Positions 6,367 to 16,544 of a stretch of 16,544 bases of DNA are shown in pieces. The notes beneath the pieces are model-generated. The model searched no databases. It had not been told where the DNA came from and saw only the letters and a list, made by a program, of their open reading frames with translations. The DNA is taken from assembly GCA_963741095.1 (NCBI GenBank), contig CAVUGN010000010.1:1-16544 (forward strand), given 5' to 3'. Each line of letters starts with the position of its first letter. The stretch's first letter is position 1. Source of the DNA: an uncultured Candidatus Micrarchaeota archaeon (GTDB taxonomy: Archaea; Micrarchaeota; Micrarchaeia; Micrarchaeales; Micrarchaeaceae). Made by a program: the position numbers and the translations under genes.

Positions 6367-7401
6367 GTGGAATTAAGAGAATTGGTTGCTTTAAAAAGCA
6401 ATGACTATGCCAGCATAGCCGAAAGATTCGAGCGCGAAACAGGCGAATCCATTCTAAGCAATAAGAATACAAAAAGATTAGAATTAATAAAAGAACCTTT
6501 GAGCATTGTCCTGCCATCCTACGAAGTGCACGAGCAGTTACCCTTCACTCTGGAATGTCTAAACAAGCAAGTCTATCAAAATTTTGAAGTTCTGATAGTG
6601 GACAACAATTCTAAACCGCCGTTAGAAAAGATAGTCCGAGAACATGAGACTAATTACCCGATCAAATACATCCGGATACCTTATAACATCTCCCAAAACC
6701 CCAATCACACACGGAACATCGGATTGATGTCCTCGGATTCGGACAACATAGTGATGTTAGATTCGGATATGATAGTGCCGCCATATTTTACTGCAAATCT
6801 GGCAATCAAACAACAGTTTACCAAAGACTGCCTATTTGTTGGGTTTAGGGAGAATGTGGATGGCAGAAACAAGGCAAAGGGGTCTGCAGACATCTCAAAG
6901 GACTGGCGGCATACCCTTGATGGCCCATCCCCTAATTTTGTGCACCTCAACATAAACGGAAAGAGGGGCGAACTAAAGGGGAACCTGAGCATTCTTGACA
7001 AAACAGACTGTTTCAAAGATTTTGGTAACGGCAAATCGTTGGCCTACTGAGATCTACCTTCGATGGTTATCGGACATTGCATCGCTTTTAGCAGACAAAG
7101 AGCGATCGAATCGGGCGGATTTCCAGAAATATTCTCCGGATGGGGGATTGACGATATCGCTTTCGGAGCCAATATGATTGCAAACAACCAGTACATTGTT
7201 CCCTCATTAAACACCGTAAACTATCATATTGCACACAGAAATAAAGAAGGCAACAAGAAAAGTCTAGCGGAACTAAAAGCAAACATAAAAAGGTATTTTG
7301 ATTATGCAAATTCAGATTTTTCACCAAGATTTCCAAATTACAAAGTCAAACAATACGATTCAGATTCTTTAAAACAATATCTTTTAGAGGTTGTCGAATG
7401 A
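6367..7401 (+). pseudogene. Family 2 glycosyltransferase interrupted by one in-frame TGA (7048-7050)
   Basis: ORFs 6367..7050 and 7063..7401 are in the same frame (...KSLAY*DLPSMVIGHC...). The N part has IVLPSYE, IVDNNS and the DxD motif LDSD. The C part has GGFPEIFSGWGIDD, the GT-A C-terminal motif. Confidence 0.78.
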
Positions 7402-11209: not shown

Positions 11210-11812
11210 ATGGAGAATCTTAGCAGAACTGTTCTTGCAGCCATTAGGGACTCAAATGCAGGCATTTCCACACTCGATGTGCTTGAGAGCCTAAGGCTAT
11301 GCGATACCTTCACCTTAAAAACCACTCTGAGCAGATTGGGCAAAGCAGGAAAGATTCTACGCCTTAAACGGGGCGTCTACGCAACAAATCCACTCAAGGA
11401 TGCGTTTTCGGCAGCCCAAGCGACATTCAGCGGTTATATCGGGTTCTCTTCCGCCCTATACATCCATAAGCTGATTGCAGAATCGCCATTCTCCATCACT
11501 GTTGTGACAACCGACAAATCTGCATCCAAGGCGTTCGGAGCATATGAGTTCAGGGCCGTAGCGCTTAAAGAAAGGGCCGTGGGGTTCGAAAGCATCGGGA
11601 ATCTGATTGTTTCTACAAAGGCCAAGACGCTCTTCGATTGCACATACCTCGAAAGATACTCGATTGAAAAGGAAAAGATCATCGAAGCATACAATGCAAA
11701 CTCCCTGAGCACCAAAGAATGGAAGGAATTTGATTCCTACGTAACCCGCTTCATTAATACGGGGATGCGATACAAGTTCGATGAGATAAAGAAGAGAATA
11801 ACCAAGAGTTGA
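11210..11812 (+). CDS. Type IV TA antitoxin / transcriptional regulator, AbiEi family
   Basis: N-terminal wHTH (TLSRLGKAGKILRLKRGVY), then YIGFSSALYIHKL and STKAKTLFDC. Directly upstream of an AbiEii-type gene. Confidence 0.85.
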   Translation: MENLSRTVLAAIRDSNAGISTLDVLESLRLCDTFTLKTTLSRLGKAGKILRLKRGVYATNPLKDAFSAAQATFSGYIGFSSALYIHKLIAESPFSITVVTTDKSASKAFGAYEFRAVALKERAVGFESIGNLIVSTKAKTLFDCTYLERYSIEKEKIIEAYNANSLSTKEWKEFDSYVTRFINTGMRYKFDEIKKRITKS

Positions 11813-11818
11813 TGGATA

Positions 11819-12616
11819 ATGGAACTTGACATTGAGGTGTGCAGGACTATCGCAGTACGCTACGGGCTGCCGCTCCAGTTCGTCGTGAAGGAGTTCCACT
11901 TAATGGATGCGGTGGGAATGATTGCCGAGTTTGTTTCCCATAAGCCTGATTCATTGGTATTCAAAGGAGGCACGGCACTCAATAAGGTGTATCTGGAAAA
12001 AATGCAGAGATTCTCCGAAGATGCCGACTTCGACCTTGTGACAAAAGACGCCAAACGGGAACTTCTGAGCTTCTGCAAAGAGCTTGCCGCAAGCATGAAA
12101 GGCTATGAGGTGGCAGAGTTTCGAAAAGTGCGCGACACCATTCAATTTTATTGTGAATATGAAAGCCCTCTTGGCGAGGATCATATCCGAATCGATGTCT
12201 CACCGAAAAAGCTCATTACGGCTATGCCGGTCGCCAACAAAACTGCGGTTTCCGAATTTGCCCACGCATCAGTAAGCGGTCTGATAGTCTATTCGCTCGA
12301 GGACCTTACTGCACGAAAACTTAATGCGCTTGCAACACGCAGCGAAGGAAAAGACCTGTATGACTGCCATGCCGCCCTGCCACTCTGTAGCCCTGCCGTG
12401 CTTAAAAATGCAATCACGCAGATGCTCAAATCTGAGGGTAAAAAGGAAAGCGCATCAGAATTCATGCAAAAAGCGCTTCACGCGCTTAGGAATAGCGATC
12501 CCAAGAAGCTGCGCAACCTGACAAATCCATTCATACCATTCGCCCTGCGCCCCAAAAACTGGGAAGAATTGAAAAACGACCTGCTGATAAAACTCGAGGA
12601 GCTTGGCGTATTCTAA
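11819..12616 (+). CDS. Type IV TA toxin, AbiEii/DUF1814 nucleotidyltransferase
   Basis: FKGGTALNKVY, RFSEDADF and ARKLNALATRSEGKDLYD motifs. Confidence 0.9.
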   Translation: MELDIEVCRTIAVRYGLPLQFVVKEFHLMDAVGMIAEFVSHKPDSLVFKGGTALNKVYLEKMQRFSEDADFDLVTKDAKRELLSFCKELAASMKGYEVAEFRKVRDTIQFYCEYESPLGEDHIRIDVSPKKLITAMPVANKTAVSEFAHASVSGLIVYSLEDLTARKLNALATRSEGKDLYDCHAALPLCSPAVLKNAITQMLKSEGKKESASEFMQKALHALRNSDPKKLRNLTNPFIPFALRPKNWEELKNDLLIKLEELGVF

Positions 12617-12972
12617 GTCATGATTTGATATACTGTCAAGCCTCCTGAGAGAGCGCAATTGAGGCTCATTTAAGCCCTGAGAGGGCTCTAGCTGCCTGGG
12701 TTCTATGCCCTAAGTTGTTGTTCATAGAACTACCACTTACCATTAGGCATGCTAGCTATATAAAAGCCCTCATTGTATTCGGAACCGGCAAGAAACACGC
12801 AAAAGGCAAGAACGGCGAGACTGTCGTCATGCAACTGGACAACAATTGGATTGATTATGTTAGGTTAGTGGTTCAAATTAGATCGGGAGCAGATCGTTAC
12901 GGGGATATAGCTAACAGGAAGAAATGTCCCCTTTTTACTACCATAAATATGAAATGAGGGGATTTATAGCTT

Positions 12973-13019
12973 GCGAGGGCAGGTGGGGCGGTGAGGGGTC
13001 TGGGGTCTGAACTGCCAAA
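12973..13019 (+). repeat. G-rich degenerate direct repeat, copy 1 (contains a four-tract G-quadruplex motif)
   Basis: GCGAGGGC-AGGTGGGGC-GGTGAGGGGTCTGGGGTCTG-AACTGCCAAA shares four blocks, in order, with 15404-15442. Confidence 0.55.
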
Positions 13020-13066
13020 ACACAAGCTTTTTAAGCCTTTTCAGAGATGCTAGGACAGGTGAAACT

Positions 13067-13096
13067 ATGGACGGAGGAGGACAAGGAGGAGGCTAA
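13067..13096 (+). other. Micro-ORF MDGGGQGGG with TATA box and RBS
   Basis: TTTTTAAG at 13028-13035, AGGTGA at 13057-13062, then ATG GAC GGA GGA GGA CAA GGA GGA GGC TAA. Confidence 0.4.
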
Positions 13097-13133
13097 TTCA
13101 AGATAACATATTCAGGATACTCACTACTAATTG

Positions 13134-14570
13134 CTATACGCCCTGCTGCGTTAGCTCTTCTCCTCGGAAGCCTATTTCTGGCCTGACTTTTCTTCGGGTT
13201 CCGTAGTCTATTTTCTCGCTTGGAAGATCCATCGAGTATAACTCTACTAGTTTGTCGTAATGGTGCACCGTGTGCCTGTTATCGAACTTGCGATAACACG
13301 GACGGCCAACAATCACGCCCGATATTAGCGATGTGGTAAGTTTTGCGCTGCTGACTTTTTTCCTGAGCTCTTCCTCCACCTCCTGGAGCATGTTCTCGCC
13401 GTATACAGGCATGACCAGCATCGTGCTGTACGGCGTTTGTATGTCGCCTTCAAGCACGAATTTGTTGGTCTGGTGCGGGGTATCCGCGATTATGTCCAGC
13501 CAAAAATTTGCCCTTTCTTCATCAAATTTGATGTTGTCCATAACTTCCATGAAGATTATGGCATTGTATCGTATTGGCAGGTTGCCCATCGTTATCGTGG
13601 TGCGTTTTATTACGCTCCTGTCAAGAAGCTTGTAATACACATTGTTGGCGGTTTCTGCCCTGAACCCGTGCTTCTCGTCTATATCGGTGAATTTGGCATC
13701 GCCATTTTCGCAAAGGTCTTTTAGGACATCGTATTCTTTGGTGGTCAGCTCCCCTTTTGCGGGCCTAGGCCTGCCTTTTGACCTGTGCCACACCCTCCCT
13801 TTCAAGAGCCCAAAAAATTCGCTTCGTATGGGTACGAAGCCATAATACGGATAGAAAGGCGTTGTGACCCAATGCGAAACGTACTTTTTCAATGGTGTTT
13901 CAGACTTCAGCCGGTATATCAGGTGGTTTAGTTGTTCATTGTCTTCGGCTAGGATGTAAACGAGCACGTCGTATTCGCCTTTGGTCAATGCAACCAGTTG
14001 TATCCGCGGCTCGTTCTCCAAGGACTCTTTGAGCTCTGCAATGGTAGGGAAATCATCGACAAACTTTATGAACGCGATGTAGTCCAGATAACCTAATTTT
14101 TCGGTGTCGATCTCGGCGGTATACTTTATATCGTATCTCTCTTCAATGTTCTTTACTTGATATGAAGTCGCGGTGCTGCTTAATTTGAGCATGCCGCTTA
14201 TGAAATGCGCAGGCGCCCTGCCATTCATGCTGAGCACCCTGAGTATCGTGTGTTCGTATTTGTGTTCGTCTGGTGGCGCCCTTCCTTCTATTCTACTGAC
14301 AGGGGATAATGCCGTTTCTTGTGGTTTCGGTTCGTTTTGGGCTTTTGAAGGTCTTCCCCTCTTGTTGGAGGTAGGTACAAATGTTCCGTCGTCTTTTATT
14401 CGGCCGAGGTACCATGTCTTTGTATGCGGTCTCTTCAATGCCTTATCCCATTTGCTTTTGTAGCCGAACACGCAGAAGCGGTTTTTTAATATTTTTACCT
14501 GTAGCCCGACGCTGCTCCTTGCTTTCATATCCTCGAAAGCCTTTGCCACTTTTCCAGGTAATGCTCGCAT
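13134..14570 (-). CDS. Tandem (double) Lrp/AsnC-family regulator with N-terminal extension
   Basis: HTH1 EHTILRVLSMNGRA...YTAEIDTEKLGY followed by RAM-like LTKGEYDVLVY. HTH2 EYDVLKDLCENGDAKFTDI...YYKLLDRSVIKR followed by a second RAM-like region. About 100-aa basic N-terminal extension. Confidence 0.82.
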   Translation of the reverse strand: MRALPGKVAKAFEDMKARSSVGLQVKILKNRFCVFGYKSKWDKALKRPHTKTWYLGRIKDDGTFVPTSNKRGRPSKAQNEPKPQETALSPVSRIEGRAPPDEHKYEHTILRVLSMNGRAPAHFISGMLKLSSTATSYQVKNIEERYDIKYTAEIDTEKLGYLDYIAFIKFVDDFPTIAELKESLENEPRIQLVALTKGEYDVLVYILAEDNEQLNHLIYRLKSETPLKKYVSHWVTTPFYPYYGFVPIRSEFFGLLKGRVWHRSKGRPRPAKGELTTKEYDVLKDLCENGDAKFTDIDEKHGFRAETANNVYYKLLDRSVIKRTTITMGNLPIRYNAIIFMEVMDNIKFDEERANFWLDIIADTPHQTNKFVLEGDIQTPYSTMLVMPVYGENMLQEVEEELRKKVSSAKLTTSLISGVIVGRPCYRKFDNRHTVHHYDKLVELYSMDLPSEKIDYGTRRKVRPEIGFRGEELTQQGV

Positions 14571-14574
14571 ATGG

Positions 14575-14752
14575 TATAAATTACATATAGAATATATATT
14601 TATTGCTTCCTATGCGACAGATATCTGCATAGGTAATATGGTATATAAAAAGATTGCTCCAACAGATAATTAGTTAAAATATGTATAAATTTAATCTAAA
14701 CTTGTATTATGGCTTAGTTACGGCAGAATTTTATCCAGGTCGATTATATATA
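14575..14752. promoter_or_regulatory. AT-rich divergent promoter region with a near-perfect palindrome
   Basis: CCTATGC[GAC]AGAT/ATCTGCATAGG at 14609-14633. TATA-like boxes on both strands (TTTTTATA on - at about 14644-14651; TTATATA on + at about 14745-14751). Confidence 0.55.
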
Positions 14753-14900
14753 CAACCCTGTTCACAAACATATGTGGGTGGAGAGGATGATTGGGGTGGA
14801 AGTAAGCATTTTTCTAAGGCCAGCGCAGGCTCTGTCCAGAGTCTCACCACATGCTTCCGCGGTACAATCCTCTACCCCTAACGATCAATAGGGTGGTAGA

Positions 14901-15091
14901 ATGGGTGTAAGCGCAAGGATGAGCAGATTTTCTCAGGAAACGACAGGAGCGTTCTAGTGCGGGTGCGCATGGACAGCGTGGAGGGCAAGGCGTACTGCAG
15001 GGAGAGCGAGGTGGGCGGCTACATATCGGAGATGATGAAGCTGTCAGCCGGAAGCATGAGCGTCATGATAGACGCGAATCCAAGAGGTTGA
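14901..15091 (+). CDS. Small hypothetical protein (about 63 aa); needs one extra G just after the ATG
   Basis: GGGTGGT RBS then ATG 14901. The long open frame begins at GGG 14903 (GCKRKDEQIFSGNDRSVLVRVRMDSVEGKAYC...NPRG*). Internal GTG/ATG starts are also possible. Not in the ORF track. Confidence 0.45.
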
Positions 15092-15133
15092 TCCAGTAAC
15101 GTTAAGTGGGTGTAAAGTAAACCGGGTGGAAAA

Positions 15134-15400
15134 TTGACAACAAACAAGCTAGCGCGAGCCAGCGGAAGCGGCAAGAAAGGATTGTGCAGGACCGTATTCC
15201 TGCAGCTGAAAGGCGGGAACGGCGACCTTGCGGAGAGGCTGATGGACATATGGCGCAGGCAGCACATTCCTCTTTACGACCGCAATGGAGACTGCGTGGC
15301 CGAGGTCAGATTCTATAGGGATCGAAGCGAGCTGAAGGATGCAAAAGACCGGGCGTCGCATGGCATCGGCAGGGCCTTCGTATCGATGGTCGAAGGATGA
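15134..15400 (+). CDS. Small hypothetical protein (88 aa)
   Basis: GGGTGG RBS 4 nt before TTG 15134. Codon style resembles the GC-richer genes. No recognisable motif. Confidence 0.6.
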   Translation: MTTNKLARASGSGKKGLCRTVFLQLKGGNGDLAERLMDIWRRQHIPLYDRNGDCVAEVRFYRDRSELKDAKDRASHGIGRAFVSMVEG

Positions 15401-15403
15401 ACG

Positions 15404-15442
15404 GCAAGGGCGTGGTGGGGCAGGGTCTGGATAACTGCCAAA
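15404..15442 (+). repeat. G-rich degenerate direct repeat, copy 2
   Basis: GCAAGGGC-GTGGTGGGGC-AGGGTCTGG-AT-AACTGCCAAA. Confidence 0.55.
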
Positions 15443-15526
15443 TGACGATGCATAACCGAGTATATAAGTATCTCTTAGGGGAAAATAGTGGTATGGTATA
15501 TATGATAAGAAAGATAGGTGGTTTGC

Positions 15527-16544
15527 GTGTATAATATTGCATTGGAGTCCGAAAAAACAGTAAATAACGTTTCAGAAAATGACCGCATTGTACGGGATCA
15601 GCTCATAAAAGACTTACTAAAGTTACCAAACGAAGTTATAATAGATTTAAGAGAATTGCAGGCAGAGAGCGGCTGCTTTAATCAATGTAGTTTTTGCGGT
15701 GTAAATTCAGGCAAATTTGTTTTTAGACTTAATAGAAGTGCTTTAGCCAATCTATTTGCCGGGATAAAATTTGTGTCATTAAAAATTGCTGGTTTGGAAA
15801 GCAATTTATCTGAGGAGGGCGTTCTATCAAGCGACTTTAAAATGCCTAGAGAGGGACTTGTTGGTTATGGGCCTAAGAAACGGCGTGTTGGTACCATTTA
15901 TCCATATGAAGATAATGATATAACCTCTTATCCTTTCGTTGACAGCTACGTAAAATTTGCCATGGAAGATCTGGGTGTAAAAACACGGATAACAACAGTA
16001 GGTTATAGTAGAATGAATAAGGAGCTACAATCTGCTAATGAGAATCTTAACAAAACATATCTAGAAGATATAGAAGCGCTACGTTTTTCCTTTACGCCTT
16101 ATACTTTTGGCTGGACAGATGATAGAAAAGTAACTTCGAGAGTTGATTTTATTCATGATCTAGCAAATACGCTAAAAACATATAAACCGATGGTCGAATA
16201 TCTATTGAATAAAGGCTCTGAAGCATCGCTAGACCTCAGGTTCCGAACATTAGTCATCGGAAATACAAAACTAACGGAGACGATACTATTTAGGAAACAT
16301 ATACTTCAGGTAGGCCCATACCTGCTAATAAGTATTGACGATTATAAACCATTTATAAGATCAAACATAAATGGCAAGATAAGGCATTCAATAAGTGTTG
16401 ATGGAAAACCTAGAAAATATCTCATGCTTGTTTCAGATTCTTTCTCGGAAGATAGTTTTTGGAAAGATCTATCTGAGGATTTGATCCATTCCAATTTTAG
16501 TATAAGAAAAGGTATGGAAAGAGAATTTAAAATGAAAGAAGTTA
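15527..16544 (+). CDS. Radical SAM protein, 3'-truncated by the window edge
   Basis: AGGTGGT RBS, GTG 15527, and an open frame to the window end (at least 339 codons). LQAESGCFNQCSFC gives CxxxCxxC (C50/C54/C57) with the aromatic residue before the last Cys. Absent from the ORF track because no stop falls in the window. Confidence 0.85.
   Translation, partial: MYNIALESEKTVNNVSENDRIVRDQLIKDLLKLPNEVIIDLRELQAESGCFNQCSFCGVNSGKFVFRLNRSALANLFAGIKFVSLKIAGLESNLSEEGVLSSDFKMPREGLVGYGPKKRRVGTIYPYEDNDITSYPFVDSYVKFAMEDLGVKTRITTVGYSRMNKELQSANENLNKTYLEDIEALRFSFTPYTFGWTDDRKVTSRVDFIHDLANTLKTYKPMVEYLLNKGSEASLDLRFRTLVIGNTKLTETILFRKHILQVGPYLLISIDDYKPFIRSNINGKIRHSISVDGKPRKYLMLVSDSFSEDSFWKDLSEDLIHSNFSIRKGMEREFKMKEV

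Follow-up and report, generated by a model that had tools for sequence, protein, structure and literature searches.

How a protein of 478 residues that joins two regulator-like units to a transposase-like N-terminus has come about in an archaeon, and what such a molecule would do there, is the question raised by a gene on the minus strand at positions 13134 to 14570 of the DNA described here. The stretch analysed (the window) is the entire 16,544-bp contig C10 (CAVUGN010000010.1) of GenBank assembly GCA_963741095.1, from an uncultured Candidatus Micrarchaeota archaeon; this assembly, G000 in what follows, comprises 1.08 Mb in 11 contigs and is 94% complete. The original prediction, made from the sequence alone, regarded the product as a domesticated transposase end-binding domain fused to a ligand sensor, possibly recognising the repeats that flank its gene. 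Our composite reading is that the protein, P0001, is probably a ligand-sensing transcription factor in which a domesticated IS1634 transposase head serves as a DNA-binding module, and which controls its own promoter and a divergent one.

The open reading frame (ORF) is genuine: it starts with ATG, encodes 478 residues and contains the peptide VKILKNRF...DDGTF at residues 25-64. It can be divided as follows:

13134..14570, minus strand: gene of the regulator P0001, with an IS1634-type head, a linker and two Lrp/AsnC-like units, each formed by a helix-turn-helix (HTH) and a RAM domain (Pfam, NCBIfam, model)
14364..14570, minus strand: head, codons 1-69, basic, one helix plus a three-stranded sheet (models, profile matches, charge)
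14271..14363, minus strand: disordered linker of variable length, codons 70-100 (predicted local distance difference test, pLDDT, 30-37)
13833..14270, minus strand: Lrp/AsnC unit 1, winged HTH plus RAM, codons 101-246 (Pfam, NCBIfam, model, superposition)
13296..13748, minus strand: unit 2, MarR/TrmB-like winged HTH plus a RAM-like beta-alpha-beta-beta-alpha-beta domain, codons 275-425 (Pfam MarR and TrmB matches, model, NirDL superposition)

Several layers of evidence bear on the body of the protein. In Pfam, the RAM family PF01037 matches residues 177-233 (E 1.8e-5; 25 bits, equal to the cut-off), a MarR-type HTH is recognised at residues 275-325 (E 2.7e-5), with TrmB covering the same stretch, and an HTH_AsnC match at residues 109-136 is weak (E 0.097). 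The NCBIfam models Lrp, LysM and LrpA align with residues 106-223 at E ~1e-10. An AlphaFold2 model built on an alignment of 25 family members (mean pLDDT 85.9, predicted template modelling score 0.72) places in unit 1 (101-244) a three-helix HTH at 101-145 and a beta-alpha-beta-beta-alpha-beta domain at 149-244, and in unit 2 (277-421) an HTH at 277-327 followed by a second domain of that type at 335-421. A short conserved linker joins the two units in the model, and there the two RAM domains form an intramolecular pseudo-dimer, packed in the manner of a normal Lrp dimer or of fused NirDL. The protein also has a conserved C-terminal stretch.

Indeed, the fused NirDL chain 4ch7 superposes on residues 104-424 of the model with Z 16.9 and a root-mean-square deviation of 4.2 Å over 271 aligned residues (VIA-align), the next, unrelated row standing at Z 11.2. 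Single Lrp/AsnC chains, including the DNA complex 2e1c, reach Z 8.2-9.2 over 141-150 residues, HTH included, and Foldseek likewise puts 4ch7 first (E 3.6e-12), followed by about 30 Lrp/AsnC regulators. Because the two units are hardly recognisable as repeats in sequence (hhalign 13%, HTH only), the RAM identity of unit 2 rests on the predicted structure, and that of its HTH on the Pfam matches. Taken together, the Pfam and NCBIfam matches, the model and the NirDL superposition indicate that the double Lrp/AsnC reading is right, and the two HTH-RAM units proposed earlier are therefore retained.

In each unit P0001 has the winged HTH and RAM fold of the Lrp/AsnC (feast/famine) regulators, such as Pyrococcus FL11/PH1519 (2cyy, 2e1c), the AsnC-type winged HTH being present and the RAM domain being identified by PF01037 in unit 1 and by predicted structure alone in unit 2. 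These regulators, however, are dimers of 150-aa chains, each carrying a single HTH and RAM, whereas P0001 is one 478-aa chain with two diverged units, an extra transposase-type head and a C-terminal stretch. In the passages searched of a 2010 review of archaeal Lrp proteins (PMC2995911), the terms "fused", "fusion" and "duplicat" do not occur.

The head is, judging from sequence comparison, almost certainly homologous to the N-terminal segment of IS1634-family DDE transposases, which is the resemblance that the original prediction had pointed out. A profile (A3) made from the 12 heads encoded in G000, those of P0001 and its paralogues, matches 545 cluster representatives at E <=1e-3, of which 187 reach E <=1e-10; among the best 150 of the 545, nearly all are proteins of 420-514 aa or short fragments. 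A search of longer proteins with this profile returned 32, of which 27, including the G000 paralogues, have Lrp-type Pfam domains or none on record, and the other five carry the DDE domains PF01609 and/or PF13701. The best of the five, P0189 (E 9.6e-15), aligns with 89% of the window's head at 37% identity, and is followed by P0191 (3.7e-5), P0192 (9.2e-4), and P0193 and P0194 (~8e-3). All five score 122-155 bits on NF033559, the NCBIfam model of IS1634, whose cut-off is 100. In a profile-profile comparison, the head and the transposase N-terminus align over 64 columns with 98.4% probability and E 4.9e-15 (hhalign).

The reverse search leads to the same place. Used as a query on G000, P0189 finds matches through its residues 2 to ~90 only, at exactly the 12 paralogues, and its catalytic part matches nothing in that genome. 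NF033559 likewise has no match in G000. In P0001 itself, scans of Pfam and NCBIfam recognise no transposase family, so that the absence of a DDE domain noted earlier holds. Among 151 genomes of the same order, NF033559 is detected in 21, over the cut-off in 14, and P0189-like transposases occur in seven; a control search was also positive in Haloferax volcanii and Methanosarcina acetivorans, which means that the IS1634 family extends beyond the order. Six P0189-like transposase ORFs of the order are matched by the head profile (E 6e-13 to 1.4e-4):

L066: 6e-13
L073: 4.1e-10
L067: 5.5e-9
L074: 4.6e-6
L075: 3.7e-5
L071: 1.4e-4

Hence, IS1634-family transposases (NF033559) are homologous to P0001 over their first ~70 residues, the head-bearing ones being found in the same order. 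They differ in having a DDE domain and terminal inverted repeats, both of which the P0001 gene lacks: PF01609, PF13701 and NF033559 do not match, and the search for terminal inverted repeats around the gene yielded only short inverted repeats of 12-24 nt, none of which brackets it. Two IS1634-type elements of ~1.57 kb were delimited in one genome of the order (G125), at L066:1446-3012 and L073:1446-3030; they have terminal inverted repeats of 33-35 nt with the common outer motif TTAAnCCnTAACT, and their transposases bear the same head module as the regulator.

In the model of P0001 the head consists of a helix (6-18) and three long strands (22-28, 31-42 and 47-58), followed by disorder at 70-99. 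Over its 69 residues the mean net charge is +8.7, with extremes of +4 and +12 among the 12 paralogues, whose RAM domains are negatively charged; so strong a positive charge makes nucleic-acid binding likely. The linker behind it varies from 15 to 43 residues, with a pairwise identity of 19% among the paralogues. In the alignment of 25 family members, four (362-387 aa) lack a head and begin directly at the first HTH, and head-less forms of 340-400 aa, matching only positions 100-440, are common in the order. As head-less double-Lrp forms are so widespread in the order and the IS1634 family ranges beyond it, we infer that the head is a separable add-on gained by a pre-existing double-Lrp regulator, the transfer having probably gone from transposase to regulator.

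The capture of transposase DNA-binding domains by host transcription factors is well documented in plants and animals. Eukaryotic transposase-derived factors such as FHY3/FAR1, ZBED and others (PMC6000157, PMC10027918, 10.1101/2020.05.07.082677) have kept the DNA-binding domain and lost the catalytic part. The logic would be the same for P0001, but the host is an archaeon, the presumed donor is of IS1634 type and the recipient is an existing ligand-sensing regulator of Lrp type. The literature searched yielded no archaeal or bacterial example of an Lrp-type regulator carrying the head of an insertion sequence. The head module also offers a way of approaching the N-terminal domain of IS1634 transposases.

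P0001 is not alone. A count of its paralogues gave 12 full-length copies in G000 with 31-37% identity, six in a row on contig C11, four on C5, one on C1 and one in the window (C10), that is, roughly one G000 gene per hundred. The original prediction would have been abandoned for a single-copy gene without any match to a transposase profile; what is found is a profile match and twelve copies. Among the 41 genomes searched (G000 and 40 relatives), 37 have a match to the family, and, as read from the table of matches, 28 of the 40 relatives have the head-including form. According to the sequence searches, this family of transcription regulators is confined to a single order of archaea with small genomes; in NCBI, two of the homologues are labelled "Candidatus Marsarchaeota archaeon". 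In an order with genomes of 0.6-1.3 Mb and few regulators, the family is probably a major regulator class.

The age of the copies can be approached from a FastTree tree of 139 members, made up of the 12 own copies and 127 of 128 other proteins of 420-520 aa, one row having failed the family hidden Markov model (HMM) at 1e-30. The own copies are scattered on it: the label "own genome" requires 11 changes, against a mean of 11.6 when shuffled, and 169 of 500 shuffles are as low. Several of them adjoin proteins of other assemblies, for example with 55% identity for C11:39972, and at least one tree neighbour (P0172) is G000's own protein with another start. Since they are scattered over the family tree, the 12 copies are old paralogues and not the product of a recent burst.

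The DNA around these genes tells another story. Flanking DNA is 75-98% identical among the 12 loci, versus 31-37% for the regulator proteins, and the block that extends between about -140 and -840, counted from the regulator start codon, is 75-93% identical between loci. In the window, the upstream flank contains:

14592..14603, minus strand: TATA-like box 22-33 nt upstream of the regulator ATG, an ATATTTA-type stretch being kept at that distance in paralogue loci
14609..14633, no strand: perfect 7-bp inverted repeat CCTATGC-N11-GCATAGG, a locus-specific candidate operator just upstream of the regulator TATA box
14744..14956, plus strand: divergent TATA box (~14745-14752) and conserved non-coding leader, 76-81% identical in DNA at seven other G000 loci
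14957..15091, plus strand: orfA, 44 aa, small conserved ORF of the divergent unit, with four further copies at 72-86% amino-acid identity
15134..15400, plus strand: orfB, 88 aa, small conserved ORF of the divergent unit, with four further copies at 72-91% and one at 30-36%

The position of the TATA-like box, 22-33 nt before the ATG, suggests that the regulator mRNA would be leaderless. The regulator's own promoter region (14571-14744) varies between loci, and no palindrome common to the other paralogue promoters was found; in the upstream flank, a promoter-proximal motif is common to all 12 loci. The leader DNA, present in eight copies in G000, was not found in the 40 relatives, including a same-genus genome 84% complete, and its reading frame is not conserved among the copies. 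A structured RNA is not supported in the leader: RNAalifold proposes 41 pairs, five with compensatory change, and the single sequence has a z of 0.21, with 111 of 200 shuffles folding equally well or better. Rfam gives nothing in 12000-16544 at E up to 1.

As for the two small ORFs, orfA has no Pfam family, and orfB gives no usable match either in the ESM Atlas or when its profile is compared with PDB sequences. The five copies of orfB are found in G000 alone among the 41 genomes, the 84%-complete genome of the same genus included. Four loci have a different Cys/His-rich small ORF where orfA would be. The genes past orfB also differ between loci, and comprise radical-SAM/SPASM enzymes, an S9 peptidase, large proteins of unknown function and KaiC/V4R. 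Radical-SAM or SPASM enzymes lie 3' of orfB in two cassettes (C11:47003-50368 and C11:52560-56327; L014), and the S9 peptidase in one. The layout of these cassettes recalls peptide-modification clusters, orfA or orfB being possible substrates. An ORF at 12715-12957 was considered as a decayed orfB copy and rejected (BLASTP E 0.019, not significant). In three of 12 loci from relatives (L046, L052 and L053), a small ORF divergent from the regulator weakly matches the Lrp/AsnC RAM domain (E 1.9e-4 to 8.4e-3), and these ORFs may be stand-alone RAM partners.

Flanks so nearly identical, and found in G000 alone among the 41 genomes, might suggest that a mobile or viral cassette, served by its own regulator, has been copied to the 12 loci. 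Toxin-antitoxin genes (AbiE, HEPN/MNT, PIN, HicA) between or beside the loci, and a lower GC content around the cassette, would agree with it. This proposal is, however, very unlikely. The regulator genes are 31-37% identical and scattered on the tree, each nearer to proteins of other assemblies, from which it follows that the regulators were not copied along with their flanks. Moreover, the loci scanned show neither an integrase nor a transposase, G000 has yielded no IS1634 transposase, long inverted repeats bounding the cassette were not found, and PHROGs and PADLOC have no matches for the regulator, the head, orfA, orfB or ORF 15518. Being found in G000 alone among the 41 genomes, the flanks have rather spread, or been homogenised, secondarily around old genes.

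Returning to P0001 as a host regulator, a mechanism can be outlined. The head, presumably captured from an IS1634-type element, would provide a third module for binding DNA. Acting as an Lrp dimer with a covalent link, the two HTH units would read a paralogue-specific site at each locus, and the RAM pair would sense a small ligand. The tethered basic head would add a third DNA contact, possibly at promoter motifs common to all cassettes. P0001 would control the presumably leaderless promoter of its own gene as well as the divergent one at a distance of 175 nt, the latter driving the leader, orfA, orfB and the variable cargo genes.

Besides the palindrome, the window contains a pair of G-rich sequences that had been proposed as recognition sites:

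12973..13019, plus strand: left copy of a G-rich direct repeat, ending in AACTGCCAAA ~10 nt before the TATA box of a convergent mini-gene described below (local alignment)
15404..15442, plus strand: right copy of the G-rich direct repeat, after orfB and upstream of the TATA-like TATATAAG and ORF 15518 (local alignment)

The pair is a genuine direct repeat: its local alignment score of 31, compared with 19.0 +/- 2.4 for shuffles, is reached by one of 1000 shuffles and by none of 711 other genome windows. Both copies end in AACTGCCAAA, shortly upstream of a plus-strand TATA-like box. It is reasonable, on these sequence features, to see them as candidate operators for the window's paralogue alone. 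That the head reads the two repeats is possible in principle, but doubtful. From the original prediction, then, the head homology, the missing DDE domain and the double Lrp/AsnC body of sensor type stand; the end-binding role of the head is conjectural, and the confinement of the flanking repeats to one of 12 loci speaks against their recognition. The G-rich flanks were also compared with IS1634 ends and rejected as such: against the 33-35-nt terminal repeats of L066 and L073 they score within the shuffle range, 17 to 183 of 200 shuffles being as high.

Several observations weigh against the view of P0001 as a transcription factor with a domesticated head, and they concern the DNA sites, the body and the head. 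At the DNA level, no operator motif common to all 12 loci has been identified, the common promoters apart, and the G-rich repeats are absent from the other 11 loci, none of which has a repeat pair of its own. In the body, Lrp-type NCBIfam models score only 20-39 bits, far under the curated cut-offs of 180-250 (LysM, Lrp, LrpA, AsnC), none of which P0001 exceeds. Furthermore, its best structural match, NirDL, is no regulator but an enzyme that takes part in haem d1 and alternative haem synthesis.

NirDL and the AhbA-AhbB siroheme decarboxylase (4ch7, 4czd) present the same double Lrp/AsnC-like arrangement, in a single chain or as a heterodimer, and NirDL leads by far among the VIA-align matches and also comes first in Foldseek. 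This would make of P0001 an enzyme or scaffold of that type and not a transcription factor, an alternative that we find extremely unlikely. The sequence identity to NirDL is only 10-12%, NirDL has no head, and no such Pfam or NCBIfam family is recognised in P0001, whose sequence matches are the regulators Lrp, LysM, LrpA, MarR and TrmB. Haem-pathway genes were not seen among the neighbours scanned; 12 divergent paralogues in a 1.08-Mb genome, and a basic head common to P0001 and transposases, are likewise hard to reconcile with an enzyme.

With regard to the head, the curated IS1634 model NF033559 does not match P0001, and no Pfam family was found for the 12 heads, nothing falling below E 0.028. 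The head HMM does not match the long, canonical IS1634 transposases that occur in the order (L054-L057), and their N-termini align with the head weakly, in the same register (hhalign probability 30%, E 5.4e-4, 40 columns). According to these alignments, the homology is strongest to one subgroup of IS1634 transposases and fades toward the canonical type. The history could then have been a different one, in which the head was not domesticated from a transposon: the IS1634 subgroup would have taken it from the regulator family, or the two would go back to an older, small DNA-binding domain that stood on its own. Indeed, those transposase heads that come closest (P0189, P0195, L066, L073, L067) belong to a minority type. 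Among the best 150 of the 545 matches to the head profile there are many short proteins (78-160 aa), and a search of the ESM Atlas with the head returned only unnamed clusters of hypothetical proteins of 57-71 aa, so that stand-alone forms may exist. Nevertheless, the weaker transposase heads (L074, L075 and L071, E 4.6e-6 to 1.4e-4) lead over to the canonical IS1634 N-terminus with the register kept, the IS1634 family also occurs outside the order, the regulator is known from this lineage only, and the widespread head-less double-Lrp forms fit a gain by the regulator. We therefore regard such a history as unlikely.

The function assigned to the head has its own difficulties. Compared alone with the PDB by Foldseek, the head reaches a best E of 0.08, in rows that include HerA and double-stranded RNA-binding domains, and against 48,161 chains (VIA-align) its best Z is 5.0, with no convincing match to a DNA-binding domain. 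Nor is it better conserved than the rest, since its pairwise identity among paralogues is 39%, compared with 33-43% for other domains. No functional study of the module was found in the literature searched, which included a search on IS1634, and the passages of PMC3281130 searched contain none on the function of this head in IS1634 transposases. It could thus be conceived that the head does not bind DNA and that, in transposase and regulator alike, it mediates oligomerisation or the binding of RNA or of a partner, only the two HTH units contacting DNA; the predicted transcripts of the conserved leader and of the mini-gene nearby could then be its RNA targets.

We consider this rather unlikely, given that the strong positive charge is kept in all 12 copies and that a flexible tether is typical of an accessory DNA-binding module. 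The head module is, moreover, the N-terminus of DDE transposases, and in the related IS4/Tn5 group the N-terminal region of the transposase binds the element ends. Our preference remains with a DNA-binding head in a ligand-sensing regulator.

A further component of the locus lies downstream of the regulator gene:

13030..13096, plus strand: convergent mini-gene with a TATA-like box, a GGTGA ribosome-binding site and a micro-ORF (13067-13096) encoding MDGGGQGGG, ending 37 nt before the regulator stop codon

The general layout, on the strand opposite to the regulator, comprises a TATA-like box and a spacer of ~27 nt, then a ribosome-binding site (GGTGA or AGTGA), and lastly a micro-ORF with an ATG start and 6-13 codons. 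A pattern derived from the copies has 15 matches in G000, one in the window and 14 on C1, C5 and C11, none in the reversed control and none in the 40 relatives. All 15 lie 33-442 nt past the stop codon of a paralogue, in convergent orientation, and none of the 12 paralogues is without one. When the genome was scanned less strictly, for short Gly-rich ORFs accompanied by TATA motifs and a ribosome-binding site, 13 matches were obtained, each of them at a paralogue; in both scans the criteria were fixed after the copies had been seen. In 12 loci from relatives, with 14 regulators, there is one short Gly-rich ORF of that type. The micro-ORFs of 14 of the 15 copies are mostly glycine, and the 15 peptides are all different (for example MDGGGQGGG, MEGPGG and MGDGGSSG) despite their common promoter and ribosome-binding site. 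The third base of the glycine codons is variable, which fits translation of the predicted micro-ORFs.

As every paralogue has one, the convergent glycine-rich mini-gene would belong to the regulator circuit. It could be further imagined that each regulator pairs with its own mini-gene, that the peptide, or its translation coupled to antisense transcription that enters the regulator gene, feeds back on the RAM sensor, and that the head anchors all paralogues on the common promoter cassette. Bacterial quorum systems formed by a regulator and an adjacent peptide have a comparable logic. We hold this extension to be quite improbable; if true, it would amount to a twelve-channel micropeptide-regulator signalling system in a small-genome archaeon. 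More generally, the association of old, divergent regulators with near-identical flanks found in G000 alone among the 41 genomes, and with a private Gly-rich micro-ORF for each copy, points to the concerted evolution, or the spread, of a cis-regulatory module.

Some observations concern the surroundings of the cassettes. In the window, the regulator cassette is separated from the valyl-tRNA synthetase gene by an AbiEi/AbiEii toxin-antitoxin pair (11210-12616; Pfam, PADLOC), and HEPN/MNT, PIN and HicA modules sit between paralogues on C11. A family member adjoins the valyl-tRNA synthetase gene also in L045 (G035:C1:790001-802000), from a genome of another family of the order; with only 36% identity to P0001, it is at most a possible orthologue. 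Upstream of the paralogue at C5:97902 there are four consecutive ankyrin-repeat genes (L016, C5:93611-96490), unusual for an archaeon.

Logan DNA contigs over 12600-15600 are short, of low depth and identical to the window where they cover it, and none bridges the cassette. Contigs of two runs (X1 and X3) diverge from the window at 12683 and continue with a different sequence containing a TTTAAGCC-like stretch, which may correspond to a structural variant in the population at the left edge of the cassette. Finally, the window is low in GC (0.38-0.44) between 6000 and 8500, where a nucleotidyltransferase/DUF4037 pair is present and a glycosyltransferase-2 gene appears split into two ORFs (6367-7050 and 7063-7401).

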